Of a stretch of 64,000 bases of DNA, positions 26,984-52,120 are shown in pieces. How positions within the stretch are numbered: position 1 is the first letter of the stretch; every line of letters starts with the position of its first letter. This DNA comes from Alphaproteobacteria bacterium (GTDB lineage: Bacteria > Pseudomonadota > Alphaproteobacteria > CAAHEQ01 > UBA3637), in assembly GCA_017466695.1 (NCBI GenBank), contig JAFTTR010000023.1:49583-113582 (forward strand), written 5' to 3'. Below the pieces are notes generated by a model. That model ran no database searches. It saw nothing but the letters and a program-made list of their open reading frames with translations, and had not been told where the DNA came from. A program made the position numbers and the translations under genes.

Positions 26984-27035
26984 AAAGGGCATCTATTAAG
27001 AATTAACGTTTTGAACGAATACCCCCTCCTCTATA

Positions 27036-29348
27036 TTACCCATTTTGATTTAGGTAATTAGATGACAAATATCTCATGGGATGATGCTGTGCATCTAATC
27101 TTACTTTGTTTTGCCATAACCCATATCCACCATTTCGAATAATATCTTCTTCTTTTAAAGGATATGGGAAATCACACTCTTTTAAATAAACAGTTTTACC
27201 CTTAGGTAAAATTAATTTTTTAACATCTTTTAAAGAGGTGTTATGTAAAGAAACTTCATCACAATTTGAAAAATCAAGCACATCCGTCTCTTTTAATAAA
27301 ACATTTGTCAAATGAACTCGTTTCACCCTATTATCCATTTTAAAATCATGGATTGAAACACAATTAAAAGGGGCAAACATAAAAGATGTTATACCCCTAA
27401 TATCAAGAAAAAGCTCTTCTGGGAAGGTTGAAAAAATCAAATCCACCCTCTCTGCTTTTTTAGGGAGTGTTATTTCTTTAACATTTTCCAAATAACTCTC
27501 TGAAATTTGAACACTCCCCGTTACATGAGATAAATCTAAATGATCTATATTAAATTTTGTAACCCCACTTTCAAAATTACGAACTTGAGGTGGCAGTTTA
27601 AATACAGGCGCTGTAATTTGCATCCGACATAATGAAACATCTGAACAATCTAACGACAACCCTTCTAATGATTTCAAGTGGTTACTCAAATGCATTTGTA
27701 ATGAAAAGTATCTATTCTTTATACCTTTAAAATCATGAATATTAGGCGATAAAAGCCTCAATTCATCAGCATGAAATGGCAACAAATTCTGATGTTTTTT
27801 AGAAAAATAATAACATTCAAAAATACCATATATATCCATATTTTTAAAAGAAACTGAAGAAGCAACCCCATCTGAAGAAACGGAAAGTTTAGGTCTTGAA
27901 TCAAAAAATGCATCTAAAGCATTTAATTTGGCTGTAAGTGAGAGATATTTTCGGTTCCAATTTCCAACACAAATACGCCCATCAACTCCTTTAGAATATA
28001 TGAGATTTTGATGTTTTAAAATATCATATTCATCCATATTAAAATAGTAAGTAGAAGCTTCAGCATCTTTATAACATCCATCAACAAGAGAAAAGGCTCC
28101 TCTCAACTTCGGCTGATATTGAGATAAAAATTCATCCAATTGTTCACGCACGGCTGGTATTTTCAGCCCATACATATACCCAGATTTAAAATAAACATTC
28201 CCATTTTCATTAACAAAAGGCTTAATACTTATTCGAGCCAACTTTTTGGCTGGATTTTTTGAATTAATCCCAAAAGCTACAAAAACACCATTCCCAATTT
28301 CTTCTGGTAAATAATGCGAATTAATCCCTTTTGGTGTTAAACAAGAAGCCCACTCATCCTTCGAATACTCTGCGTAAGCACTCATTTTGGCAATATCAGA
28401 TGGGTATTTTGAAAGAACAAGCATATCAATTATGTCATTTTTTTGCTCATTCCCTTTGTGAACAGCTTGCATCAGATGAAAATCCTGATATTGTTTTGAA
28501 TAAAATTCTCTTAAATTAAATAATCGGTTTTTTAAATCATCACTTGAAGCAAGAGCTCCTTTTGACATCACTTCATAAAATAAAACAGGCGTCATGAATG
28601 CTCTTGGCATTGAAAAACGAGACCGACTTTTAAATTTCGAATACGTATTTAAATAATCTTGATACGAATGAATTCCATTTAAATAAGAAACAAAATCTTC
28701 AGCAGCGTTGGAAGAAGAAACACGAGTTAATATTTGAGAGAGAAAATCTGACTGTTTTTTCAAAAAACGCCCTGCTTTTGTACCAATAACATGCATATGG
28801 CATTTTTGATCTTTTGCAGACTGAACCAAAAATGAAAAGCCTTTTTCAACAACTTTAACAGACTCATCATTCGGAATTGAAAGATTTATCTTATCAATCA
28901 AATTTTTCAAAAACAAAAAACCAGAAGAAACTGGGTTGATTTTCAAATAAACCCTCTCTTTATCTTGAAAAAAAGAGGGATAAGAAGGTCTGTACCCTTC
29001 CCTTAATTTTTGTCCTTTTAAAACGATTTTTTGAATATCATTATCATAATAGCGCACCTGAGCCCTAAAATCTCGCACAAGCTGATTTAATAATTCTAAA
29101 TCATTTAAATTCTGTTTAATTTTATCGTAAGGAATTAAATCTTCAGCAGCATAATTTTCAGCCAATAAAAAAAGACGAAAAATAGTGAAAAAAGCCTTTT
29201 TATCCCCTTTATTTTCAAAAAGGAATCTTTGGACCTTTTTCTTCACCCTTTTTATTCGAAAATCTAAAAAGTCTTTTTCCTCTTCAGCTGATAATAATTT
29301 TAACATATATTCTCCTTTAAACACGAAGAAGAATTGTACCATACCCAC
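27036..29348 (-). CDS. Hypothetical 770-aa protein with phage-like central domain and LRR-like C-terminus
   Basis: SKYPSDIAKMS...W.SC...VFVAFG...LARISIKPF...YG core; LKSLEGL and L.L....LP-type repeats. Likely start is MLKLL after an AGGAG RBS. Confidence 0.65.
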   Translation of the reverse strand: MGMVQFFFVFKGEYMLKLLSAEEEKDFLDFRIKRVKKKVQRFLFENKGDKKAFFTIFRLFLLAENYAAEDLIPYDKIKQNLNDLELLNQLVRDFRAQVRYYDNDIQKIVLKGQKLREGYRPSYPSFFQDKERVYLKINPVSSGFLFLKNLIDKINLSIPNDESVKVVEKGFSFLVQSAKDQKCHMHVIGTKAGRFLKKQSDFLSQILTRVSSSNAAEDFVSYLNGIHSYQDYLNTYSKFKSRSRFSMPRAFMTPVLFYEVMSKGALASSDDLKNRLFNLREFYSKQYQDFHLMQAVHKGNEQKNDIIDMLVLSKYPSDIAKMSAYAEYSKDEWASCLTPKGINSHYLPEEIGNGVFVAFGINSKNPAKKLARISIKPFVNENGNVYFKSGYMYGLKIPAVREQLDEFLSQYQPKLRGAFSLVDGCYKDAEASTYYFNMDEYDILKHQNLIYSKGVDGRICVGNWNRKYLSLTAKLNALDAFFDSRPKLSVSSDGVASSVSFKNMDIYGIFECYYFSKKHQNLLPFHADELRLLSPNIHDFKGIKNRYFSLQMHLSNHLKSLEGLSLDCSDVSLCRMQITAPVFKLPPQVRNFESGVTKFNIDHLDLSHVTGSVQISESYLENVKEITLPKKAERVDLIFSTFPEELFLDIRGITSFMFAPFNCVSIHDFKMDNRVKRVHLTNVLLKETDVLDFSNCDEVSLHNTSLKDVKKLILPKGKTVYLKECDFPYPLKEEDIIRNGGYGLWQNKVRLDAQHHPMRYLSSNYLNQNG

Positions 29349-34190: not shown

Positions 34191-34326
34191 AAAAAGTGAT
34201 CTTTTGAGGACAACCCTATTTTTTTCAAGGAAAGTTCACTGAAAGGTCAATTTTTTATTCACTTAAAAACAAAAAAACCAAAGCAAATAGCCGTAAAAAA
34301 CATCAAAAGAGTGTCTTAATCAGACT

Positions 34327-37300
34327 TTAGAACTTATATTTTGCACTGGCTTTCCCTGTGTGGTTTGTATAATCCCCTTTAAAGTTACCTTCATATTCAA
34401 AGGCAATTTCTGCTTTTCTATTCACATCAAACCCAACTCTAGCCCCAATTTCAATACCAAATCTATCCATACTCTCACCATCAACTTGATAAAGGGCTCC
34501 ATTAGGAAGTGTAATCTTGTTTTCGAACTCTGGTTCAATTAAGTCATAAGTTGAAGCAATTCTTAACTCAGGATACCATGAAATAACTGGTGATAAACGA
34601 TATCCAATAGAATAGGATACACCCAGAACTCCCGTTAAAATTTGCGTATCAGAACTGGCCACTCTTTGACCTGCTTCATCTTCATATTCATGTTGTTTTA
34701 AATATGTATATCTTAAACCCATTTCTGGAGAAATAACACCAGTTGCCCAATTTTTAGAAACGAAAGGCCCCATTTTTTTACCAACCATGACTTGAGCACT
34801 CAACATATCAACATCATAGTCAGCTTTAATACGGTGTTGGAATACCTTTTTATTTTCTTCATAAGAAGAACGCCCATACAGTGCCTGCCAATTCACATAC
34901 ACACGACTTGGATTATATTCACCATACGCCATAATGACATGAGAAGTGATATCTGTATCTCTTTGAACAGCACTTCCATCAGCTTTCATATGAGCATAAG
35001 CAAGCCCTATTTTGCTATTATCAGCAATAGGCGTATCAAACCCAAAGGCTAAGCCTGTTGTATCCATATCAAATCCTTTTGCCCCTGAAATCTCAGAAGT
35101 ACCATAAATTGTTTGTACCCACATACGAGATTCTTTTTTAGGGAATTTGTAGAAACGATATCCTCTATGAGTATATCCTGTTTGTTCAGAAGCAGTACTT
35201 AATTGTTTAGAAACAATTGTAGATAAGCGATTGATAATCTCAAATGAATGGGATTGAATAAGCGCAGATGTGTCTGGAGCTAATCCTTCAAGAGCTGCAA
35301 TATACTCTTTAGAATTTGGTCCTAAAATTTGAGCCATATCATTCAACGTATCTTGAATTTCTTTTGGTTTACCCTCTTCTTCAATAGGCTCCCCTAAAAC
35401 AAACTCATCATGAATACAGTGAATCCCTTTACAAACACCTGGTTTTTTTGAAGGAGCTGGAGGTGGAGTTGGCTCAACAGGCGCTTTACCAGACCCAGGA
35501 CAGTCACTTCCTTTGGTGCAAAGTTGATATTCCCCATTTCCAATATAATAAATGTCATACATTGAGTTTTCTAAAACTCTTGCAAATCCACTCTCAGCTG
35601 GGGCATTGAGTGTTTCAGCATCCAAAAGTGTGAAATTTTTATATCCTGTTGTAAAGTGTTCCCCTGTTGCAACCACAATGGCAAGTTCTGTTCCTTTATC
35701 TGAAACATGAATTGTGTTACCAGATACCTTACCATATTCAGTGCCAGATAAGGCATTAATATGTGTGATTAATTTTGAATTATCATTAAAGGAAACTGTA
35801 TCCCCATGCAAAGTTGATTTTCCAATATCTAAAAAGCCGCCTTCTTGAACAACCACTTTGGCAAAAGAAAGATCTTGAGCATTAGATCCAATTGTTAAAT
35901 TATTCGCAATCAAATCGTTTGAAGTAGAGAACTTCCCTGCTACATCCAATGTGGCATTATTCATGTTCAGCGTCCCTACACCTGTTAAATTTGTCAAAGA
36001 TAACTGTCCATCACTCATCGTAACTGTACTATTATTTTCAACTTGTTCAAGTGTGTTTACCCCAGAAAGCGTTACTATTGCCGTATCACCAGAATTGGTT
36101 AATTTTGCAAGATCAAGACCTCTTGCTGTTAACACGCCTTTATTATTTAATGCATTAGCTTTTACATTTATCGCTTCAAGGGAACCTGTGTTTTCAATGT
36201 TTTGATCCACTGTTACTTGGGTCAAAGCCATTTGAGAAGCATTTTTAACAACCGTACCAGCTGTTGAGTCTTGAATGATAACATTTTCTAAGAGAACATC
36301 TCCTTTTTGGTTGTCAACAACAGTATTTGCTCCATCAATCGTGATATTTTTAACCTCTAATGAAGTATTTTGATTATCCAGTTTAAATAAGTCTTTTCCA
36401 TTTGCCTGAATGGTGCTTTCTGTGGCAACGGTTGAGGCACCTAAAATCTTTTTGTCCCCTCCTGATAATGTATCAATCGTTTCATCAGAAGAAACCTCAT
36501 AATTTGCCCCACCTTGAGCGCTTGCATCCATTTGCAAAGTGGCATTCCCCTCATATTTAGCCAAATATTCTAAAGGTGTATCTTTAATTTTATTCGCTTC
36601 AATTGAAACTGTTTGGTCTTCCGTCTTCATTTCGTAAACATAAGGAGAAGTGTTTGAAAGAAGCGCTGAGGAAGTCTCTTTAAAGGTTGCCTTACCACCT
36701 AATACAGCCGTTTCATATTTAATAGCTGGATCAAATTCCCCTGTTTGATCAAGAATAAGATTATTAATAAATGCATTCAAAAGCTCTTGTCCAGACACAT
36801 TAAATTCAACAGAACCAAAGGCATAATCTGTCTTTGTTGTAAGTTTATCCGTTGTTAAAGAGATAGAGCCATCTTCTTCTTGATTAAAAATCATATCAAT
36901 CAACAAGTTTGCTTCACTTCCTGTGAGATTTGTAAAGGTTGTTTCATCTTGTTGATTATTTTGCATATCAATTGTATTCGAATTATCAACCACATAGGCA
37001 CCAACATATGAAGAGGCCCCCAATTTAATATTCGCATCTTTAAAAGTTACTTTACCCCCATTTTGAGCAATATCTTTGTTAAGAGCATAAGTTGTCTTTG
37101 TCCCATTAGCAACACTTGCTGTGGTGAACAAAGTATTTGTCGCCCCATCTTCAACATAAGCGTCAATATAGCCTTGTTTGATATCATCCGTATAGGTACC
37201 AAACACAGCCTCAGAATTTGCATTTAAAGACACATTATCAAGGTTAGATGTACCCCCCGTGCTATAGTGTTTCCAAACAACTTTGTTACTTGAATCCGTT

Positions 37301-40300
37301 CCAGCAAACGATACCTTGAGATTAGAGGCATTCCCATGTGTTTCAAGTGTTCCCCCAGTAATCGTGTTCGTCTTGGCAAAGTTCATCTTACGCGTATCAG
37401 CAATTGTGAGCCCTGCGCTTTGCGTGAATGTAGCACTACCCACATAACCATTCACCATACCATCTCCGAGGATAAGTGTTCCTGCCCCTGTTTTGTTGAT
37501 TTTACCATCTTGTTGATAAATACCACCATCAAGTGTACCAACTGTTCCTGTACCACCTGCGAAAGTAATCGTTCCAGCATTATAAATATCAGCGCCTTTG
37601 GCATTTGCACTATCTGTTGCTGAAACAGTGTTACCACTAAAGAGGAAACCATCATTAAATGTGATAGAACTATCATTATAAATCGCCCCACCGTTAGCAT
37701 AGCTACCTATTGCTTTATTTGATGTAAAGATAACCTTATCATTAAACGAAATTGTCGCTGAAGGACCATTATAAATCGCCCCACCTAAAACACTAGAAGC
37801 CGTTGCAGAGTTTTCTGTAAAAATGGCTATATTATTGAATTTCATTCCTCCGTCATTGAAAATTGCCCCACCTGAAGCAGATGAACTTCCAGTAGAAACC
37901 GTGTTCTTTTCAAAAACAACCTCACCCACAAAATCAGTATCTGTTTGTTGGCTCGCATAAATTGCACCTCCTCGAGCTTCAACATTTTTACTTATCACAG
38001 AGTTATTTATAAATGATGTATTTCCTTTAAATGCTATATTTGAAGTATAATCATTATAAACAGCGCCTCCCCCCTGGTCGTAGCCACCTACTCCATTTAC
38101 TAAGTTTCCTGTAAATGACGTTACACCATCAACTGTAAGCGTGCCATTGTTATAAATTGCACCTCCTTTATAAGCATTATATTCACCAGAGGTAACTTCA
38201 TTATCCTTAAACAGGGCTCCATTTGAGGCATTTAATGTTAATGTTCCTTCATTTCTAACAGCGCTTGATGTGGCGCCTTGTACAACAACGTTATCAAGGT
38301 TAACGGTTGCTGTTGTATCTGAGGCTACTGTAATGACACTGCTAGCGCCATCGATGGTTACGTTCTTAAGAGTTGCCTCCCCTGCGTTTGAAGAGGTATA
38401 TTCCAACACCTTATAACCATTGGCTTGAATGATACTTTCTGAAGCATTACTTGTTGCCCCAATGATTTGTTTTTTATTTGTCCCAACTGGACCCATTGAA
38501 CTTGCAACTGGATTTGATGGGTTTTGATCCACGCTTGTGATTTGATAGGTATAAATGCCATCATTCAAATCCCCAGCCGTGGCCATATTAAACAAAGCGC
38601 TATAGTTCGAGCGTACCATTTTCCCAAGGTTAGTGTATTCAACAACGGAGACTGGAGTCCCTGTAATCGTGATATATTGCTCCCCTGCGATAACATTTGC
38701 AATCAACCCATCTAAGATACCATCCAATTCGAATGATTTTGTGTTGGCGAATGTGGCGCCCCCCTTCAATGCTTGATATGTTTCAACATTCTCAATACTT
38801 GTGATTAAACTTGTGTCAAGCGCTGTTAAATCAAACACAATCTGGGCAACTGTTGTGTCAATAATATCCCCAAAGTCCATTGATAAATCAATGTTTGTTG
38901 CTTGTAAGTTATTGAATGTTAAATGGTCTTTTGTCCCATTAATCAAGTTCATTGAACTTGTATCTGACAAAGCATAGTTCCCAGCATACGTAAGTGTTCC
39001 ACTGCCAAAGCTGACATCAGCATCTTTAAAGGTAACCACTGCTGCCTTTGAGGTGCTGGCAATGTCTGAGCTCAGTTTATAATGAGCCTTATCAATCGTG
39101 TTAGAGGTCAAAAGTTTGCCTGTTACATCATAGGCAGTGTATTTAATCGAGCCATCTGTGTTATAAACAACATTCCCATCTGAATCCAGTTCTGGAACAA
39201 CCTTAGTTGAAGCAAGTGCAACTTCTTCAGCTTTTGCTGAATCCGTATAGGCGCCAAAGACAACCTCTGCCCCTTTCACTGTAAGGCTCGTTGGCAAGCT
39301 GGCTTCTTGACTTGAGCTGTTCGTGGTTAAATAGGTGAGTTGAGCGCCATTTGAAACTGTGGCTGTTAAGTCACTTAAAGTACCTCCATGAACTCTGAGT
39401 TCCCCACCTGTGATGGTTTGCGTTTCCCCAAGTTTGAAGTTGCTTGTGTTGGCAATCGTAAGCCCTGCGCTTTGCGTAAAGGATGAAATTCTACCATAGT
39501 TATTCACCATACCATCCCCTAAAATGAGTGTCCCTGCCCCTGTTTTGTTGATTGTAGCAGAAGATTGATAAATACCCCCATCTAAAGAGCCAACTGTTCC
39601 TGTACCACCTGCGAAAATAATCGTTCCATCATTATAAATATCAGCGCCTTTAGCATTTGTAGTATTTGTGGCTGAAACAGTGTTGCCACTGAAGAGGAAC
39701 CCATCATTAAATGTGATAGAACTACAATTATAAATCGCCCCACCTTGAGCACTGTTTGTTGCTAAAATTTTATTATTTGTGAATGTTGCTTCTTCCTCAA
39801 ATGAAATATCTCCAAGACTATTAAAAATCGCTCCACCCCAAATATAACTGGACGCACCTGTTGCTGTTGCATTTATTGAGTTATTTGTAAAAGTAGTGGT
39901 CCCATCAAACTCAATGCTCCCACTATTATAAATCGCCCCACCACCCGTAGAATACTCTCCTGTGGCAGTTAGTGAATTGTTTGCAAATGAAGTTGCACCC
40001 TTAAATGTAATTGTCCCATCATAATAATTATAAATCACTCCACCACTAGCAAAATCACCGGTTGCAGTATTACCTGTAAATATAGCAGCCTTATTAAACG
40101 TAAGAGTAGATTCACCATAAAGAGCCTCCCTAGAATTAGAAATCACGCCACCTAAAACATTAGAACCCGTTGCAGAGTTATTTGTAAATATGGCATCATC
40201 AACAAATTCAATGGTTCCATTTTTATTATAAATCGTCCCACCTTCAACAGCAACAACTGAACCTGTACCTGTTACCGAGTTGCTTAAAAACTCAGCAGTC

Positions 40301-42846
40301 GAACCAAACTCAATTACACCTCTTTCATTATAAATTGCCCCACCAGCTACAGTTGATGCATCACCCTCAATCAAGTTCCGTTGAAAGGAAACAGCTTCAG
40401 TGAACTTGATTAAAGAAGATAAATCTAAACTAGTAGTATTATAAATCGCACCACCTAAAACGTTAGAACCCATTACTGAGTTATTTGCAAATGATGTTTC
40501 TCCATTAAATATAATTGAACTATCAGAGACGCTATAAATCGCCCCACCATGAAGAGAAGAGTCACCTGACAAAGCGCTATTTTTAAAATTCATTGCGCCA
40601 TTAAAGATGAGTGAGCTACTACCTGTAGTATCTAACCTTGAATTGTCAAAGGTGTAATTGGTTGCATAGGTGCCAGTTGCAACGGTTACGTCAGCGTCTT
40701 TAAAAATAACTTCCGAAGCACCAGTGATATCAGCTGTTAAGTTATAGCTTGCTCTATCAATGGTACTAGCTGTTAAAAGGTTTGCGCTTGCATCATACCC
40801 AGAAAAAAACGTATTATCGCTTATTAAATCAAGCTCTGCTTGTTTTTCAGCCGATGTATAAGCCCCCAAAGTTAAAACAACATCCGTGAGTGATACTGTG
40901 CTTGGCAAGGCAATATCTAGCACTGAGCTGTTCGTGGTTAAATAGGTGAGCTGGGCACCATCTGAAACACTGGCTGTTAAGTTAGATAAACTATCCCCAT
41001 GAAGTTTTAAATGTGTCCCCTCGCCTGAAATGGTTTGTGTTTCCCCAAGGTTGAAGTTGCTTGTATTGGCAATGGTGAGCCCTGCTGTTTGCGTAAAGGA
41101 TGGGGTGAACGTTTCATTTTCATCAGAGGTATATGTTTCCCAGCTATTAACAGCATTATCCCCTAAAATAAGCGTCCCTGCACCTGTTTTGTTAATTGTA
41201 CCTCCTAACTGATGAATGCCACCATCTAAAGTACCAATTGTTCCTTCGCCAGCAGCAAAAATAATACTACTCTTTTCACCATTATAAATATCAGCCCCTT
41301 TGGCACTTGCGCTATCTGATGATGTTACCTTATTTTCAGTGAAGAGGAAGTTTTTGTTAAACGTTGTTGTACCATAGTTGTAAAGCGCACCCCCTAAAGC
41401 CAAACTGGTTGAAGTTGACTTTGCTTGATTTTTTTTAAATGTAACATTGTCGTTAAATGTCACTGTACCCTTATTATTCGTGCGAATAGCGCCCCCTCTG
41501 GTATTAGTAGCACCAGTTGCTATGTTGCCTTCAAACGTTGTAACACCTGAAAATGTAATCGAATCTTTGTTATAAATAGCGCCTCCTTGCGCAACACCTG
41601 AGGAAGATGTGGCCGTGTTATTTTTAAACTCCGTCACACCTGAAAATGTTACACTCGCTCCATCAGAATCATTGTAAATCGCCCCACCATAAGCATTCCC
41701 ATCTGTCCCCGTGGCTTTGACTGAGTTCCCTGAAAATGAAGCTCCTTTTTCAAACGTAACTGTGGTCGCAGTAGCCGTACTTGATAGATAATTGTAAATC
41801 GCCCCACCAGAAGCACTTTTAGATTCGGCTGAGGTGGAAGCTGAATTCCCACTAAACGTAGCCATATCTTTAAATGTCAGCGTTGAGGTACCAAGATAAC
41901 CCGTATAAATCGCCCCACCAACTGCAGAAGTACTTGTTGCAGTAGTTTTGTTGTTTGAGAATGTGGCAGTTTTTTGAAATTCCAGCGAACCATTCGTATT
42001 ACCAATCGCCCCACCTAGACGGGAAGCTGTATTCCCAGTGAATGTGGCCGTATTTTTAAATATAAATGATGAATCATAAGCATCAATTGCCCCACCATCA
42101 CTAGCAGAGTTATTTGTAAAGGAAGCTGTATTATTAAATGTATTGGTTGATTCATCAGCCCAAATCGCCCCACCATCACCTCCAGCAGAGTTACTTGTAA
42201 AAGTAGCTGCTTTATTAAATATAAGAGTTGGATTAGTTGCAATCCCATTATAAATTGCACCTCCATCACCAGCAGCCGAGTTATTTGAAAATGTAGCTGT
42301 ACCACCAAATGTTATCTTCCCCTCGTTATCAATTGCCCCAGCCCAAGGAATAATACCACCATCAATCACACTATTAGATTTGAATGTTGTATCCCCAGCA
42401 AAGAAAATTGTTCCACTATTATAAATCGCCGCAGCATGACTCCGATCATCTGAGTTTGAGGGAAAGGATGCTGTAATTTTATTATTACTAAAAGAAAGAT
42501 GTCCGGCACCTAAAAATGAAATTGTCCCAGCATTCCTTAAACGACCACCGATAAACCCTGTACCAGTAAGGTTCACGGATTTTAAGGCGATAAGGCCTGT
42601 GCTTGCGTTTTCTTCACTTTCAGCATAAGTGACGGAAATGTTCGTTCCACTCGCAACAATCGTTGTTGTTGATGAAGAAGCTAAATCTGATTTTAACGTT
42701 GCTGCATTCGTTGCCGTTCCTGAAACAGCAGGAACAGAAAAAGCCCCCAAACTAAAAGCCAACACATTCAAGAGGAAACATTTTTTCAACAAATTAAAAT
42801 ATCTTTTTTTTGATTTTCCAAGTATTAAACAGGTATAATTTTTCAT
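34327..42846 (-). CDS. Giant modular autotransporter (~2840 aa) with Pmp-like GGAIYN repeats
   Basis: Dozens of GGAIYN / F..N repeats, three INKTGAGTLILG modules, beta-barrel ending AKYKF; start ATG 42846 after a GAAGGGGG RBS. Confidence 0.9.
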   Translation of the reverse strand: MKNYTCLILGKSKKRYFNLLKKCFLLNVLAFSLGAFSVPAVSGTATNAATLKSDLASSSTTTIVASGTNISVTYAESEENASTGLIALKSVNLTGTGFIGGRLRNAGTISFLGAGHLSFSNNKITASFPSNSDDRSHAAAIYNSGTIFFAGDTTFKSNSVIDGGIIPWAGAIDNEGKITFGGTATFSNNSAAGDGGAIYNGIATNPTLIFNKAATFTSNSAGGDGGAIWADESTNTFNNTASFTNNSASDGGAIDAYDSSFIFKNTATFTGNTASRLGGAIGNTNGSLEFQKTATFSNNKTTATSTSAVGGAIYTGYLGTSTLTFKDMATFSGNSASTSAESKSASGGAIYNYLSSTATATTVTFEKGASFSGNSVKATGTDGNAYGGAIYNDSDGASVTFSGVTEFKNNTATSSSGVAQGGAIYNKDSITFSGVTTFEGNIATGATNTRGGAIRTNNKGTVTFNDNVTFKKNQAKSTSTSLALGGALYNYGTTTFNKNFLFTENKVTSSDSASAKGADIYNGEKSSIIFAAGEGTIGTLDGGIHQLGGTINKTGAGTLILGDNAVNSWETYTSDENETFTPSFTQTAGLTIANTSNFNLGETQTISGEGTHLKLHGDSLSNLTASVSDGAQLTYLTTNSSVLDIALPSTVSLTDVVLTLGAYTSAEKQAELDLISDNTFFSGYDASANLLTASTIDRASYNLTADITGASEVIFKDADVTVATGTYATNYTFDNSRLDTTGSSSLIFNGAMNFKNSALSGDSSLHGGAIYSVSDSSIIFNGETSFANNSVMGSNVLGGAIYNTTSLDLSSLIKFTEAVSFQRNLIEGDASTVAGGAIYNERGVIEFGSTAEFLSNSVTGTGSVVAVEGGTIYNKNGTIEFVDDAIFTNNSATGSNVLGGVISNSREALYGESTLTFNKAAIFTGNTATGDFASGGVIYNYYDGTITFKGATSFANNSLTATGEYSTGGGAIYNSGSIEFDGTTTFTNNSINATATGASSYIWGGAIFNSLGDISFEEEATFTNNKILATNSAQGGAIYNCSSITFNDGFLFSGNTVSATNTTNAKGADIYNDGTIIFAGGTGTVGSLDGGIYQSSATINKTGAGTLILGDGMVNNYGRISSFTQSAGLTIANTSNFKLGETQTITGGELRVHGGTLSDLTATVSNGAQLTYLTTNSSSQEASLPTSLTVKGAEVVFGAYTDSAKAEEVALASTKVVPELDSDGNVVYNTDGSIKYTAYDVTGKLLTSNTIDKAHYKLSSDIASTSKAAVVTFKDADVSFGSGTLTYAGNYALSDTSSMNLINGTKDHLTFNNLQATNIDLSMDFGDIIDTTVAQIVFDLTALDTSLITSIENVETYQALKGGATFANTKSFELDGILDGLIANVIAGEQYITITGTPVSVVEYTNLGKMVRSNYSALFNMATAGDLNDGIYTYQITSVDQNPSNPVASSMGPVGTNKKQIIGATSNASESIIQANGYKVLEYTSSNAGEATLKNVTIDGASSVITVASDTTATVNLDNVVVQGATSSAVRNEGTLTLNASNGALFKDNEVTSGEYNAYKGGAIYNNGTLTVDGVTSFTGNLVNGVGGYDQGGGAVYNDYTSNIAFKGNTSFINNSVISKNVEARGGAIYASQQTDTDFVGEVVFEKNTVSTGSSSASGGAIFNDGGMKFNNIAIFTENSATASSVLGGAIYNGPSATISFNDKVIFTSNKAIGSYANGGAIYNDSSITFNDGFLFSGNTVSATDSANAKGADIYNAGTITFAGGTGTVGTLDGGIYQQDGKINKTGAGTLILGDGMVNGYVGSATFTQSAGLTIADTRKMNFAKTNTITGGTLETHGNASNLKVSFAGTDSSNKVVWKHYSTGGTSNLDNVSLNANSEAVFGTYTDDIKQGYIDAYVEDGATNTLFTTASVANGTKTTYALNKDIAQNGGKVTFKDANIKLGASSYVGAYVVDNSNTIDMQNNQQDETTFTNLTGSEANLLIDMIFNQEEDGSISLTTDKLTTKTDYAFGSVEFNVSGQELLNAFINNLILDQTGEFDPAIKYETAVLGGKATFKETSSALLSNTSPYVYEMKTEDQTVSIEANKIKDTPLEYLAKYEGNATLQMDASAQGGANYEVSSDETIDTLSGGDKKILGASTVATESTIQANGKDLFKLDNQNTSLEVKNITIDGANTVVDNQKGDVLLENVIIQDSTAGTVVKNASQMALTQVTVDQNIENTGSLEAINVKANALNNKGVLTARGLDLAKLTNSGDTAIVTLSGVNTLEQVENNSTVTMSDGQLSLTNLTGVGTLNMNNATLDVAGKFSTSNDLIANNLTIGSNAQDLSFAKVVVQEGGFLDIGKSTLHGDTVSFNDNSKLITHINALSGTEYGKVSGNTIHVSDKGTELAIVVATGEHFTTGYKNFTLLDAETLNAPAESGFARVLENSMYDIYYIGNGEYQLCTKGSDCPGSGKAPVEPTPPPAPSKKPGVCKGIHCIHDEFVLGEPIEEEGKPKEIQDTLNDMAQILGPNSKEYIAALEGLAPDTSALIQSHSFEIINRLSTIVSKQLSTASEQTGYTHRGYRFYKFPKKESRMWVQTIYGTSEISGAKGFDMDTTGLAFGFDTPIADNSKIGLAYAHMKADGSAVQRDTDITSHVIMAYGEYNPSRVYVNWQALYGRSSYEENKKVFQHRIKADYDVDMLSAQVMVGKKMGPFVSKNWATGVISPEMGLRYTYLKQHEYEDEAGQRVASSDTQILTGVLGVSYSIGYRLSPVISWYPELRIASTYDLIEPEFENKITLPNGALYQVDGESMDRFGIEIGARVGFDVNRKAEIAFEYEGNFKGDYTNHTGKASAKYKF
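37340..37690 (-). repeat. Passenger module copy 3
   Basis: High nucleotide similarity to ~39390-39740 (SSITFNDGFLFSGNTVSAT...KGADIYN...INKTGAGTLILGDGMVN...FTQSAGLTIA). Boundaries approximate. Confidence 0.8.
39310..39740 (-). repeat. Passenger module copy 2
   Basis: Similar to copies 1 and 3; includes an exact 27-bp match 39313-39339 = 40924-40950. Confidence 0.8.
40920..41310 (-). repeat. Passenger module copy 1
   Basis: KGADIYNG...INKTGAGTLILGD...FTQTAGLTIANTSNF.LGETQTI...GAQLTYLTTNSS. Confidence 0.75.
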
Positions 42847-42957
42847 CAAATGTCCCCCTTCATAAAATGACATGATACCCTGTCAAAATCCATCAACACA
42901 TAGAAAAACAAAAAAATATCTCCTTCATTTTCTCATTTTTCTTTCGTTCATATACTA

Positions 42958-47721: not shown

Positions 47722-49914
47722 TTACGCTCTTGGTTTTTCAGGCATATGCATATTCACTGCCAGTTTAGGTTCATCATCATGTGTAATATTATCAGCACCA
47801 GAAGCCTCTATCCTTGCAGCAGCATCTGGCTTTTTCCCCCCAGATTCGGCTTGCGTTCCTGCTGACGCAGTATCTCGTGCTTCATTCTGCGTAGCCTCTG
47901 TATCATCTTTTGATGTTGAACCCTTACCTTTAGAAGATGTTGCCTTTTCTTTCTTAGAAGAAGAACGTTTACCTTTCTTTGGAGAAGATTTTTTCGAAGG
48001 AGAAGAAGCCTCTTGTTCTTCTCTACCAGCTTCTTCTACAGCGCCTTCAGTCCCAGCACCAGCAGATACTTGCTTGTCCTTTTCTTCCATTGCTTTGGCT
48101 TCATCACGAGCTTGAGCCTCGGCTTCTCTTTTCGTTGCCTCTTCTTGTTCAGCTTGTTTTTCACCTTCAGCTGCAGCTCGCCTTTCAGCTTGGCGTGCAG
48201 CTTCTACTCTTTTGTTTTCATCTTCCTCTGTCTCATCAGAAGTTACAGCTGGAGTTGCATCCCCAGCTGGGGCTTCAACTTCAGTTGCTGGTGGCGTTCC
48301 CTCAGCTGCATGAGGCACATCTAATGGCACAACAGTCCACCCTTCTGGAACTGGGGTATTTGGAATAAAGGCAACACTATCTTCAGCCCTTGCATTTGCA
48401 AGCGCTGGGTTAAGCTTATCAGCATGAACTGAGTGATTGTGCCCTAATTGACGTCTAATATCTGCATGCGTTGCCGCATCAAAAGCAAGCCCTTCCCTTG
48501 CGAGCGCATCCCAAATCGGATCAAAATCCTTCCCTGGGTCAGTTTTACGTCCTGGCGCAATCTCGTCATGCCCCAAAACTCTATCTGGTGGAATACCATA
48601 TTGTTGTGATAATTGAGAAACAACAGCAAGAATTGTCGCTGCTTGTTCAGGGGTATATCCCTCATCCACAGCGCGTACCACTTCAATACCTATAGAACAT
48701 TCGTTTAAATTTCTTTGTCCCTGCCAACGAGAAGGCCCTGCATGGTTGGCTCTCATTTCTGGAGGAACCAACATATAAGCTTTTCCATCCCGTCCAATGA
48801 CAATATGTGCACTCACTTTATTCTCATTATGACACAGATATTTCAAGGTTGCACTTTCAGAAGCTCCCTCCCTATCTTCCGTTGAGTGAATAACAATCAT
48901 ATTCGGTTTTTGACCACCTGCACGAGGCCCTTGATGAACAGAAGAATACGTCCGATCATATTGAACATTCCCATGGAGCTCGTGTCTTTGTGTTGGAATA
49001 CGAGCCTCAAGTGGTCGAACACCTCCTCCAACTGGAGAAAAATAATTATCACTCAAGCGCTTGCGTGGGCGTGTAGACCTATCCGTTCTAAGGATATCCC
49101 CCGTTCCTCTTGTATACCCTCCAGGTGTATAAGAAGAATTGCCTCTTTGATAACTCACAGGTTGATGCCCAAAACTTGCCGTCCAATTAGCCACTTTGCT
49201 ATATCCAATACCATCTACACCAGAAGCAACTTCAGGAAAACTCATAGCAAAAGCTTCAGCTTGCTGTGGTGTTATCTCTACTCCATAAGCAGCACAACAT
49301 GAATAGTATAATAATGCCAATTCATCTTTTGTTAAGGCTAAATCAGTTCCATTTAAGTGTTTGTACTTTTCAATCAACTGTTGGGCAATCATTTTTGCCA
49401 CATCGTCAGGATTTGCATTGGGGACTTTTTTCAAAGTATCTTCAACCAACATACCCATCTCAACAGCACGCATACGAACAGCTGCGCGCTCTTTATTTTG
49501 GTTTTTACCCACAATTTCATAAACAGCTTGCATATCCCCCGCATTAAAAGCGTCAACAATCTTTGTCCAATTCCCTTGATAAGCTGTATCTAAAATCAAA
49601 GCTTGATAACAGGGCAAAAGTTTATCATAATCTTTAAATTGCGTCCGACACTTTTCATACAACTTATATTGCATTTCAGTTTTAGCAAGCACAATTGCTT
49701 GCTCATGTGTGACTTCACTTGCATGATAATTTAAATGGTTGTAACCAGCCTCATTCACCGTACCATAACCAATGGTACTAATCCTATTACTATCGTTATA
49801 TTCATACAAATAAGGGCCTCTTTTGTGCCCAGCTTCACCACGTTGAATGAGATAAAAAGAAAAATCAACAATCTTTTGATCTAATTTTTTTTGTTCTTCA
49901 TCCAGCTCTTGCAT
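47722..49914 (-). CDS. Two-domain peptidoglycan hydrolase: GH24 lysozyme-like + Amidase_2 + charged low-complexity tail
   Basis: E...NDSNRISTIGYG (D-x5-T); IVIHST, SAH, RANHAG, SIGIE, GHDEI..GRKTDPG; no signal peptide. Confidence 0.8.
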   Translation of the reverse strand: MQELDEEQKKLDQKIVDFSFYLIQRGEAGHKRGPYLYEYNDSNRISTIGYGTVNEAGYNHLNYHASEVTHEQAIVLAKTEMQYKLYEKCRTQFKDYDKLLPCYQALILDTAYQGNWTKIVDAFNAGDMQAVYEIVGKNQNKERAAVRMRAVEMGMLVEDTLKKVPNANPDDVAKMIAQQLIEKYKHLNGTDLALTKDELALLYYSCCAAYGVEITPQQAEAFAMSFPEVASGVDGIGYSKVANWTASFGHQPVSYQRGNSSYTPGGYTRGTGDILRTDRSTRPRKRLSDNYFSPVGGGVRPLEARIPTQRHELHGNVQYDRTYSSVHQGPRAGGQKPNMIVIHSTEDREGASESATLKYLCHNENKVSAHIVIGRDGKAYMLVPPEMRANHAGPSRWQGQRNLNECSIGIEVVRAVDEGYTPEQAATILAVVSQLSQQYGIPPDRVLGHDEIAPGRKTDPGKDFDPIWDALAREGLAFDAATHADIRRQLGHNHSVHADKLNPALANARAEDSVAFIPNTPVPEGWTVVPLDVPHAAEGTPPATEVEAPAGDATPAVTSDETEEDENKRVEAARQAERRAAAEGEKQAEQEEATKREAEAQARDEAKAMEEKDKQVSAGAGTEGAVEEAGREEQEASSPSKKSSPKKGKRSSSKKEKATSSKGKGSTSKDDTEATQNEARDTASAGTQAESGGKKPDAAARIEASGADNITHDDEPKLAVNMHMPEKPRA

Positions 49915-49997
49915 GTTAGACTCCTTTTTAACATATTATAATATATTTTACCCCCAAAAACTCATTTTTTCAATATTTTTTTCATTACCCATTCATT

Positions 49998-50603
49998 TTA
50001 AACGAAAAATAGGCCATAAAAAGCGCCTAATATGGCAACAAGAAAAAGCAAAAATGTAATCGGTATTTTCGTATATTTCACAACAAAAAACGATAATAAA
50101 CAAACTAATAATTCCAAAAAATTCACATAAAAACCTTCAAAATTTGATACTTTAAATGTTAAAAAATTAAAAATTTCTTTCCAAGGAACAGGCTTTGAAA
50201 AAACAGACATTTGCATAAAAATCAATGTTGCATAACAGACCATTGCAAGAGCTGCCATACGCATTGAAGTTAATAATCCATCCACAAAAAATGTGCCTTG
50301 CCCTTTTTGTAAAAAACGAACAGCCAAATACCCTAAAAAAAGACCTGGTAAAACAAGCCCAATTGAGGCAAATATACCCCCTGCAATACCATTTGTTAAA
50401 TAACCAATATACGTTGCTGAATTAATACTCACTGGTCCTGGTGTGATTTGTGATAATGAAATTAAATTACCATATACTTCCAAAGTTAAAAGTTTTTTTT
50501 CCTCAACAAATGTGTGTAACAGCATCGGGATAATCATATATCCCCCACCAAAACAAAGAAGTCCAAATTTTGCAAATGTTACCATTAAAGCGAAAACACC
50601 CAT
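49998..50603 (-). CDS. Short-chain chromate ion transporter (CHR) subunit
   Basis: FGGGY, SQITPGP..IN.AT.IG motif. Confidence 0.85.
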   Translation of the reverse strand: MGVFALMVTFAKFGLLCFGGGYMIIPMLLHTFVEEKKLLTLEVYGNLISLSQITPGPVSINSATYIGYLTNGIAGGIFASIGLVLPGLFLGYLAVRFLQKGQGTFFVDGLLTSMRMAALAMVCYATLIFMQMSVFSKPVPWKEIFNFLTFKVSNFEGFYVNFLELLVCLLSFFVVKYTKIPITFLLFLVAILGAFYGLFFV

Positions 50604-51190
50604 TATTTATCCTTTCTGATTAATGAAGGGTAAACCCCTTGTTTTGAAAAGTACAAATAAATATATCCAACCGGTAAACTACTCAAAAGAACAATAACAG
50701 GATTTATCCCAGCAACAAGTGCAACAAAAAGGCAAAAAACAATGAGATATACCATTTTTGACAATAAAACATTTTTTGCCAAACGCCAAGCCGTTAACAA
50801 AAACACCCCTGTTATACAAGAACGTACAGCTGCAAAGGCAGACATTAAAACTGGATTTTTTGAATCAAGATGATTGAAGAAAATCGCAATAAATAAAATA
50901 ATGGCAATTGATGGCATAATCACAGCGATCACTGAAACCAAAGCACCCCAAAAACCAGCTATTTTTGTTCCAACAAAAACAGCACTATTCACTGCAATCA
51001 AGCCTGGGACCGTTTGTGTCAAAACAATCATATCTAATAAATCATTTTGAGTTAATATTTTATTTTTACGTACAAACTTTTCCTCAACAACTGGCAACAT
51101 AGCCAATCCACCCCCGACAACAAACAGGGCAATTTGAAAAAACGTTGAAAATAAAAGCACTAATTTTTTTGTATAAGAAAGTTTTGTCAT
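50603..51190 (-). CDS. Short-chain chromate ion transporter (CHR) subunit
   Basis: VGGGLAM, TQTVPGLIAVN.A..VG...G..G; overlaps its partner by 1 bp. Confidence 0.85.
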   Translation of the reverse strand: MTKLSYTKKLVLLFSTFFQIALFVVGGGLAMLPVVEEKFVRKNKILTQNDLLDMIVLTQTVPGLIAVNSAVFVGTKIAGFWGALVSVIAVIMPSIAIILFIAIFFNHLDSKNPVLMSAFAAVRSCITGVFLLTAWRLAKNVLLSKMVYLIVFCLFVALVAGINPVIVLLSSLPVGYIYLYFSKQGVYPSLIRKDK

Positions 51191-51318: not shown

Positions 51319-51681
51319 ATGAAAAAAATTATATTAACAATTGTTTCTAGTGTTTTTATTTTATTAACAACAGCTTGCTCCGATGAAGTTTTAACTTCAT
51401 CCAAACAAAATGTACTCATTTTTTCACGTTCACAATGCGTTAGAACACCTAAAGCCATTGAATTTTTAAAAGAATTACAACAAAAAGACAGCAATATCCG
51501 ATATGAATTGAAAGATTTAAGTGTGGGTGAAAACAGAATTATGCTAAAAAAACTTGCACATCAATATGAACTTTCAAAAATGTCTGTCCCTACACCTATT
51601 ATTTTTACGCCTAAAGGATATATCTTAGGATGGGATGAGAAAACTGGTGAAACCTTAAAAAGACAACTAAATATTAGATAA
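51319..51681 (+). CDS. Glutaredoxin/thioredoxin-fold lipoprotein
   Basis: Lipobox LTTAC, IFSRSQCVRT, cis-Pro motif SVPTP...GYILG. Confidence 0.65.
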   Translation: MKKIILTIVSSVFILLTTACSDEVLTSSKQNVLIFSRSQCVRTPKAIEFLKELQQKDSNIRYELKDLSVGENRIMLKKLAHQYELSKMSVPTPIIFTPKGYILGWDEKTGETLKRQLNIR

Positions 51682-51796: not shown

Positions 51797-52120
51797 ATGC
51801 AAAAAACAGTTATTGAACAAGAATCAAAGTATGATATTTTAAGAAATTCTGCTGGGGAATTGTTATTTATTATCCGTGCACGTTTAACAAATGAAGAAAA
51901 ACCAACCATCATTTATGACGGTGGAGAACATGCCATTTTATACAGAAACAGCAATAATACAATTGTTTTAGACTATATCAACCCTAATGTTCGTCAGAAT
52001 TTAACAAAATCTACAAAGGTATTGGTTGTAGAAGCACAAGGCTCTTCCATTGTTAGAGAATACTTTTCTTCAGTTAAATCAGTTGAAAAAGTTCCATTAC
52101 CAGAAATTCAAACCATTTAA
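51797..52120 (+). CDS. Hypothetical protein
   Basis: GAGG RBS, 107-aa globular-looking ORF followed by a strong terminator. Confidence 0.7.
   Translation: MQKTVIEQESKYDILRNSAGELLFIIRARLTNEEKPTIIYDGGEHAILYRNSNNTIVLDYINPNVRQNLTKSTKVLVVEAQGSSIVREYFSSVKSVEKVPLPEIQTI

Follow-up and report, generated by a model that had tools for sequence, protein, structure and literature searches.

What use does a gut bacterium have for a protein that joins two peptidoglycan-hydrolase-type domains to a long disordered tail and carries no signal for leaving the cytoplasm? The question is raised by one gene in a 64,000-nucleotide stretch of an uncultured alphaproteobacterium (assembly GCA_017466695.1, contig JAFTTR010000023.1, positions 49,583 to 113,582; the whole stretch is called the window here), which encodes a fusion of a T4-lysozyme-fold domain and an AmpD-like amidase, referred to below as the lysozyme-amidase. 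The answer put forward, tentatively and as something short of an even chance, is that the protein may be a peptidoglycan hydrolase that is exported by a type IV secretion system (T4SS) and acts outside the cell that makes it. Uncultured small-genome gut Alphaproteobacteria of this kind, probably of the order Rs-D84 or a close relative, are common in the guts of livestock and humans and are suspected to live off other cells (PMC12306168); a genus-wide signal-less enzyme that shares a tail motif with eukaryote-like proteins would provide a testable handle on both the cargo of the T4SS and the type of partner. The protein is also unusual as a natural lysozyme-amidase fusion, and the active site of its lysozyme part appears to be rearranged.

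The N-terminal domain is a divergent member of the GH24/T4-lysozyme family by four approaches: a structural model, a profile search of PDB sequences, a profile search of a large protein database, and hhalign. AlphaFold2 (AF2), run for the full protein on the family alignment, gives two confident domains (residues 5-237 and 312-520), and the AF2 model of the first is a two-lobed T4-lysozyme fold (predicted local distance difference test score, pLDDT, 88; predicted template-modeling score, pTM, 0.88). Foldseek searches of PDB and BFVD with this model return only T4 and P22 lysozymes and endolysins (probability 1.0; template-modeling score, normalized to the target, 0.57-0.62). Endolysins also rank first when the family profile is compared with PDB sequences; among 1.84 billion representative proteins the same profile recovers 13 clusters of the family itself and then, after a gap, six proteins with E=2e-5 to 9e-4, all bona fide members of PF00959, which hhalign aligns with the family at 99.4% probability (E=2e-21). 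The direct match to the Pfam model PF00959 (Phage_lysozyme) reaches 12.6 bits (E=0.17), under the gathering score of 22.3 bits. The initial annotation of this DNA, made from the letters alone, had called for profile and Foldseek searches of each domain and had allowed that the first might not model as a lysozyme; the AF2 model and the Foldseek matches show that it does.

The same annotation read a T4-lysozyme-like catalytic pattern in this domain, of which the fold and one half of the pattern stand. The invariant elements of the family are QRGEaGH (E27 and H30), D41, T47-IGYG, and LLPCYQA-ILD-YQG, and the approximately 75 extra helical residues at the end of the domain are highly conserved. 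D41-x5-T47-IGYG is canonical, with D41 kept in 23 of 27 relatives (Cys in three) and T47 in 26 of 27. The canonical GH24 pattern used for comparison, however, has a Glu directly before a Gly and 9 residues ahead of the Asp, followed by D-x5-T, and here the Glu is displaced: hhalign places R32 in the catalytic-Glu column of lysozyme, a position held by Asn, Ser, or Phe in distant relatives. The invariant E27 precedes that column by 5 residues and sits at the C-terminal end of helix 1. Between E27 and D41 the spacing ranges from 14 to 21 in the family, and it is likewise 14 in the PF00959 protein P0043. Either a loop insertion may have moved the catalytic Glu, or the domain may be a glycan-binding module that has lost canonical catalysis; because E27 is 5 residues off the canonical position and R32 stands there instead, muramidase activity is plausible but unproven.

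The second domain is, as first annotated, an intact AmpD-type Amidase_2 enzyme. It matches PF01510 over residues 334-462 with the full model covered (102.8 bits, E=2e-29; Pfam gathering threshold, 26 bits), and after alignment to AmpDh2 its zinc ligands (H343, H449, and D459) and catalytic residues (E411 and K457) are found in all 24 of the 24 amidase-bearing relatives. AmpD, AmpDh2, and AmiD are its best matches in both sequence and structure, AmpD being the best in structure.

AmpD proteins are normally cytoplasmic and signal-less, and the whole protein might accordingly never leave the cell: as an elaborated AmpD, it would catabolize imported muropeptides scavenged from the gut. The structural likeness to AmpD, a partial match to the NCBIfam AmpD equivalog (NF008758), and a GH3/NagZ-like gene located approximately 1 kb upstream of the homologue in one species group fit such a role, as does the description of the lineage as metabolically dependent (PMC12306168). 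The equivalog match, however, reaches 107.4 bits and falls short of the 143-bit cut-off, and a separate stand-alone AmpD of 175 aa is encoded by this genome and across the genus; since this separate AmpD is retained, the fusion is not the housekeeping recycling enzyme, and replacement of that enzyme by the fusion is ruled out. Lysozyme requires at least a tetrasaccharide, and known importers carry muropeptides at the disaccharide level, so a muramidase in the cytoplasm would be short of substrate. A hypervariable disordered tail of 210 aa with a conserved terminal motif is also hard to explain by catabolism, and this explanation is considered improbable.

The gene and its start are secure. Identical copies of the 730-aa protein occur on nine contigs and in three independent runs that hold all of its sampled words, and the architecture is seen again in about 25 protein clusters; the fusion is therefore not an assembly artefact, a possibility that the initial annotation had kept in view. 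No Sec or Tat signal peptide is found in the lysozyme-amidase or in any family member. Upstream of the ATG the reading frame extends by only seven codons before a stop (737 aa in all), and AAGGAG precedes the ATG, so that a hidden upstream signal peptide is excluded. All relatives in the family alignment have the same start and a hydrophilic N-terminus, and the signal-less character assigned to the protein from the outset holds.

The window's genome (1.6 Mb, 34% GC, 98.6% complete) and its relatives all come from uncultured gut Alphaproteobacteria (sheep, yak, rabbit, and other guts), in an order that comprises a single family with 16 genera and genomes of 0.7-2.0 Mb, in keeping with how Rs-D84 has been described, as metabolically dependent on partners (PMC12306168). 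Within the window's genus, 19 of 21 genomes encode the N-domain family, and the two without a hit are assemblies of at least 300 contigs; the 59 genomes that represent the other 15 genera all lack it. A second copy in the window's genome (C31:27013-28929) carries two repeats of an unfamiliar domain in place of the amidase. Since this paralog and a set of orthologs at the chromosomal site of the lysozyme-amidase gene lack the amidase, the lysozyme-fold domain is the constant part of the family. Proteins of the paralog type (C31:27013-28929, P0028, P0031, P0032, and P0037) combine the lysozyme fold with two copies of a domain of approximately 110 aa that is marked by NNPxR..., Y-x-TL-x-x-GY, and LDL-x-DP-x-x-L; these C-terminal repeats match no family in Pfam or PHROG.

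The T4SS is the only machinery found in the window's genome that handles signal-less proteins, since the sheath of a type VI secretion system (T6SS; VipB), the export gate of flagella or type III secretion systems (FlhA/SctV), and an HlyBD-type type I secretion system were all looked for and not found; HlyBD is taken to be absent because the partner of TolC is a MacAB-type pump and RND pumps accompany the two remaining membrane-fusion proteins. Of the two systems that the initial annotation had proposed to search for, the genome thus has the T4SS and not the T6SS. The VirB/D4 T4SS is chromosomal, scattered, and complete-looking (C20:106975-118216 and C20:4071-6818); it consists of virB3-virB4, a cluster of virB8 (two copies), virB9, virB10, and virB11, and two VirD4 proteins, which lack acidic tails here. 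VirB9 ends in a peptidoglycan-binding SPOR domain, and VirB10 is a protein of 2213 aa with beta-flower repeats (PF21785/PF21784), within the order-wide range of approximately 2,100-2,600 aa. The T4SS with its giant VirB10 is found in 75 of 80 genomes and in all 16 genera of the order; VirB8 is duplicated, and the two VirD4 paralogs are widespread and present in most genera.

With so large a VirB10 to accommodate, the lysozyme-amidase could instead be an assembly helper of the VirB1/AtlA kind that opens the producer's own peptidoglycan for the T4SS. There is a precedent in AtlA, a signal-less phage-lysozyme-type enzyme required for T4SS function (PMC6365954), and no VirB1-type gene is seen in the virB8-virB11 cluster. 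This explanation is nevertheless improbable: the T4SS occurs in 75 of the 80 genomes and the lysozyme family in 19, all of one genus; the gene never adjoins T4SS genes in about 20 loci; and several species carry a form that lacks the amidase.

If the T4SS exports the lysozyme-amidase, as is tentatively proposed, the protein should carry a signal at its C-terminus. The end of the protein is almost entirely hypervariable; a search of Pfam with the tail gave no match even at E up to 10, and a database search with the last 45 residues recovered only the protein itself. One motif is conserved in the family, with the consensus G-x-[END]-[NDK]-I-T at 16-22 residues before the C-terminus (SGADNIT at 22 residues from the end in the lysozyme-amidase), and an Arg is often present within the last five residues. 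The strict pattern G.[NEDQK]N[IV]T matched the lysozyme-amidase alone in the genome; relaxation to NIT exposed a positional enrichment. Eight proteins of the window's genome carry NIT at a distance of 19-22 residues from the C-terminus (exactly 22 in five of them), and 1.7 would be expected. None of the eight has a signal peptide; their tails are polar and disordered, and several end in ...SRG(R)A or ...GRG. Among them are a 1753-aa ankyrin protein, a metalloprotease with an HELLH motif that resembles Peptidase_M91/NleD, and orphans; four of the eight belong to a row of giant genes that adjoins the lysozyme paralog on contig C31. The control set of approximately 320 flanking housekeeping ORFs (open reading frames) contains no such motif, and the enrichment is not seen in a control genome of another genus.

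Two further comparisons bear on the motif. The ortholog of the M91-like protease in another species has ASGKNIT at -21 in a tail that is otherwise different, so that the motif persists within the hypervariable tails of two unrelated families, the lysozyme-amidase and the protease. A stretch given as 11 residues long (ALASVSTNIT) stands at -22 in two proteins of two species that have no detectable similarity elsewhere. The motif is short, and the odds that it is a shared C-terminal export signal are judged roughly even.

Two of the places where the motif occurs are described here for their own sake. The metalloprotease (C24:20907-22022 in the window's genome) is a signal-less protein of 371 aa with NIT at -22, and it matches both Peptidase_M91 (the NleD-like "effector protein" family) and DUF6782. 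The row on C31 (C31:2402-22598) consists of five consecutive genes on the same strand for proteins of 1318, 1354, 1753, 1551, and 703 aa; two are ankyrin-repeat proteins, the tails are disordered, and four of the five have [ND]-I-T at 20-26 residues from the C-terminus. The paralog that lacks the amidase (27013-28929) begins approximately 4.4 kb downstream of this row, and the row and the paralog together look like an effector island.

Selection on the lysozyme-amidase differs between its parts. The ratio of nonsynonymous to synonymous substitution rates (dN/dS) is 0.12-0.24 in both enzyme domains, indicating purifying selection, versus 0.4-1.0 in the tail, which is the segment of the locus most divergent between strains (approximately 50% nucleotide identity versus a background of 70-88%). 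This pattern is what would be expected of an exposed or interacting part.

The mechanism proposed, still tentatively, can be set out as follows. The protein would be made in the cytoplasm, leave independently of Sec, and attack peptidoglycan at two bonds: the T4-lysozyme-fold domain would act on the glycan strand, by cleavage or at least by binding, and the AmpD-like zinc amidase would strip the peptide from N-acetylmuramic acid (MurNAc), with the flexible linker tethering the two. The disordered tail of approximately 210 residues, with [ND]-I-T approximately 20 residues from its end and a conserved basic residue at the extreme C-terminus, would serve as the C-terminal translocation signal, and the chromosomal VirB/D4 T4SS would export the protein to degrade peptidoglycan outside the producer. 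The target could be bacterial (the wall of a partner or of a competitor) or could lie in a eukaryotic partner (fragments of peptidoglycan); with a eukaryotic partner, muramyl-peptide signals could be inactivated by the amidase, and the Lys/Ser patch of the tail could be a localization element. Companions of the ankyrin and NleD-like kinds speak for a eukaryotic partner, and attack on a bacterial wall would fit the presumed dependence on other cells and the chemistry of the enzyme equally well. The initial annotation had likewise supposed a bifunctional peptidoglycan enzyme that takes a non-Sec route; the two hydrolase-type domains and the presence of a T4SS speak for it, and the displaced catalytic Glu of the lysozyme makes its first activity less certain.

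A wider version of the same proposal is somewhat unlikely: the genus may have an unrecognized set of effectors with a new C-terminal T4SS signal, the lysozyme-amidase being the member injected through this unusual T4SS. The signal, on the same somewhat unlikely reading, would consist of a small hydrophobic residue, approximately 6 residues, [ND]-I-T, and approximately 19 residues ending near an Arg. It would be carried by the ankyrin proteins, the NleD-like protease, and the orphan giants as well, and the targets would be the wall of a bacterial partner or the peptidoglycan fragments that betray the bacterium to a eukaryotic host.

Several results weigh against export of the lysozyme-amidase as an effector. 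R32 occupies the catalytic-Glu column of the lysozyme domain; orthologs at the same site in four to five species are only 355-366 aa long and lack both the amidase and the tail; and only two proteins carry a clear tail motif in a second species of the genus. A position-specific scoring matrix (PSSM) trained on the family tails was dominated by the Lys-rich background and did not cleanly recover other candidates. Only DNA runs were found to hold the gene, and no RNA runs. The distribution of the family gives no signal of association with the T4SS or with the second VirD4 and lends no support; because the T4SS and both VirD4 proteins are order-wide and the family and the NIT motif belong to one genus, co-distribution neither helps nor hurts.

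The last of these adverse results concerns immunity. Antibacterial effectors usually have an adjacent immunity gene. The initial annotation had suggested looking for one in orthologous loci; across about 20 loci, no neighboring family is conserved beyond synteny and no candidate emerged. This absence makes a classical antibacterial effector less likely. In other species (L005 and L007-L010) a helix-turn-helix regulator of the LuxR/GerE type (81-85 aa) is encoded about 250-900 nucleotides upstream, usually together with a protein of 90-134 aa that has a repetitive Asp/Glu/His tail and is acidic; the module is not present at the window's locus. Both proteins are cytoplasmic and not immunity-like, and they were rejected as immunity genes.

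The neighborhood also bears on release of the enzyme as a lysin. In this explanation a domesticated, endolysin-like protein would escape through lysis of the producer, in vesicles, or through an unlinked holin-like pore in the style of type 10 secretion, and would serve as a bacteriocin-like lysin or as a release gate; the Lys/Ser patch would help it to cross or bind anionic envelopes. The architecture is that of an endolysin in having two catalytic domains and no signal peptide, the structural matches include endolysins, and the lysis families of PHROG match the amidase domain (E=7e-26). A small membrane ORF of 83 aa lies directly upstream in L005, and the LuxR-type regulator found immediately upstream in several species suggests tightly controlled expression. 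Yet no holin, spanin, or phage gene is conserved beside the gene in any of the approximately 20 loci, whose contexts are non-phage in each species, and the small membrane ORF is a singleton among them; the absence of holin and phage neighbors, claimed first for the window, is thereby extended to the family. The amidase, moreover, is closest to Amidase_2 proteins of the lineage rather than to those of phages. It shares 44-50% identity with two proteins of the lineage, AmpD and a second Amidase_2 protein, so it was probably recruited from within the lineage, and the domesticated-endolysin origin suggested at first finds no support in an amidase that looks home-grown. Release as a lysin would also leave unexplained the fixed-distance C-terminal motif that the protein has in common with the ankyrin and protease proteins, and it is regarded as unlikely.

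The coordinates of the gene, its expression signals, and the parts of the protein are given in Table 1. The Gly/Arg/Ser-rich linker and the long charged tail that were first read from the translation are both found in the AF2 model, the linker as a disordered segment and the tail as a disordered region with a charged helix.

Table 1. Features of the lysozyme-amidase gene and protein; positions are those of the window, and residues are numbered from the ATG
Feature	Position	Strand	Basis
Whole gene, monocistronic	47722..49914	(-)	730 aa plus stop codon
Sigma-70-like promoter, TTGAAA-17-TAAAAT, in the 84 bp that separate the gene from the chromate-transporter gene upstream	49945..49973	(-)	Consensus match only
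Shine-Dalgarno sequence AAGGAG, with the ATG 6 nucleotides further on	49921..49926	(-)	Sequence
Residues 1-238, divergent GH24/T4-lysozyme-fold domain with ~75 extra C-terminal helical residues	49201..49914	(-)	AF2, Foldseek, profiles, hhalign
Residues 239-311, disordered Gly/Arg/Ser/Tyr-rich linker, pLDDT below 50	48982..49200	(-)	AF2
Residues 312-520, AmpD-like Amidase_2 zinc amidase with flanking strands and helices	48355..48981	(-)	Pfam, AF2, Foldseek
Residues 521-561, disordered acidic/Pro-rich segment, hypervariable between strains	48232..48354	(-)	AF2, strain comparison
Residues 562-610, one long Glu/Ala/Lys/Arg-rich helix of single alpha-helix or coiled-coil type	48085..48231	(-)	AF2
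Residues 611-730, disordered tail, length and composition conserved, sequence hypervariable	47725..48084	(-)	AF2, alignment
Residues 637-657, polybasic Lys/Ser patch SSPSKKSSPKKGKRSSSKKEK, net +6 per 25 aa	47944..48006	(-)	Similar Lys/Ser block across the family
Residues 705-711, SGADNIT, sole conserved motif of the tail	47782..47802	(-)	Family alignment, genome scan
Strong intrinsic terminator, 12-bp stem and T-run, 26 nucleotides past the stop codon	47667..47696	(-)	Sequence

The base composition of the gene sets it apart from its surroundings. Its GC content is 0.44-0.49 versus 0.30-0.37 in the flanks, so that the gene is indeed richer in GC than its flanks, as noted at first. Codon positions 1 and 2 account for the excess; GC at third positions (GC3) is 0.22-0.29, versus 0.247 for the genome, and since GC3 equals that of the genome, the excess is no evidence of foreign origin. 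Horizontal transfer was rejected as its cause; the high GC reflects a composition rich in Ala, Gly, Glu, and Arg.

The locus has some history of its own. A tract of approximately 2.7 kb (about 48315-51015), which extends from the second chromate-transporter gene to the point where the amidase ends, is approximately 98% identical in nucleotide sequence to L001, with short dips to 77-92%, in a background between the two species of 70-88%; beyond the tract, in the tail, identity falls to about 50%. The tract together with the hypervariable tail suggests recent recombination of the enzyme part between species.

The gene is flanked in the window by chromate transporters, an ArsP-type permease, a PIF1 helicase, AsmA, and an ECF sigma factor, a synteny seen in nine loci; at the other loci the gene lies among unrelated housekeeping genes. 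Between the AsmA/acylphosphatase and chromate-transporter genes are genes for a protein of 120 aa with a lipoprotein signal (51319-51681, + strand) and a protein of 107 aa that matches no family (51797-52120, + strand), both syntenic in the nine loci. A few kilobases downstream of the lysozyme-amidase gene (about 34300-42870, - strand) is the gene for an autotransporter- or adhesin-like protein of 2848 aa with faint repeats of the Chlamydia-PMP type; in another species an autotransporter of 1687 aa adjoins the lysozyme-amidase gene.

Four groups of known proteins invite comparison. With AmpD, AmpDh2, and AmiD, the best matches in sequence and structure, the amidase shares the conserved zinc ligands and the catalytic Glu and Lys; it differs in scoring below the equivalog cut-off, in carrying a lysozyme-fold partner domain and a long tail, and in coexisting with a separate AmpD. 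Endolysins (T4 E and P22 gp19 of GH24; PlyL and XlyA of Amidase_2) have the same two folds, are signal-less, and use modular linkers. The lysozyme-amidase, in contrast, has neither a holin or phage context nor a cell-wall-binding domain, its Glu is displaced by 5 residues, its lysozyme domain has approximately 75 extra residues, and its amidase is most similar to the chromosomal AmpD-like genes of its own lineage. AtlA of Neisseria gonorrhoeae, a lytic transglycosylase of the phage-lysozyme type, lacks a predicted signal peptide, and T4SS function depends on it (PMC6365954). Both proteins are signal-less phage-lysozyme relatives in T4SS-bearing organisms, but AtlA is a single-domain enzyme of the lambda-R type encoded inside the T4SS genetic island, whereas the lysozyme-amidase is unlinked to T4SS genes, confined to one genus, and extended by an amidase and a tail.

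Among known systems, the peptidoglycan-hydrolase X-Tfe effectors that the T4SS of Xanthomonadales exports may be the closest functional parallel to the lysozyme-amidase. The X-Tfe of the Xanthomonas/Stenotrophomonas X-T4SS (for example, XAC2609) are signal-less proteins with lysozyme- or amidase-like domains, exported through a C-terminal recognition region that is bound by VirD4 (PMC8740702, PMC10933484). The differences are that two features which define the X-Tfe are lacking, since the tail of the lysozyme-amidase has no XVIPCD (by Pfam at E up to 10, which presumes an XVIPCD model in the library) and no immunity lipoprotein of the X-Tfi type adjoins the gene in the approximately 20 loci, and that the domains are GH24 and Amidase_2 in another lineage, with a scattered T4SS and a giant VirB10. 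Common to both are peptidoglycan-hydrolase domains in a signal-less protein and a chromosomal T4SS of the VirB/D4 type.

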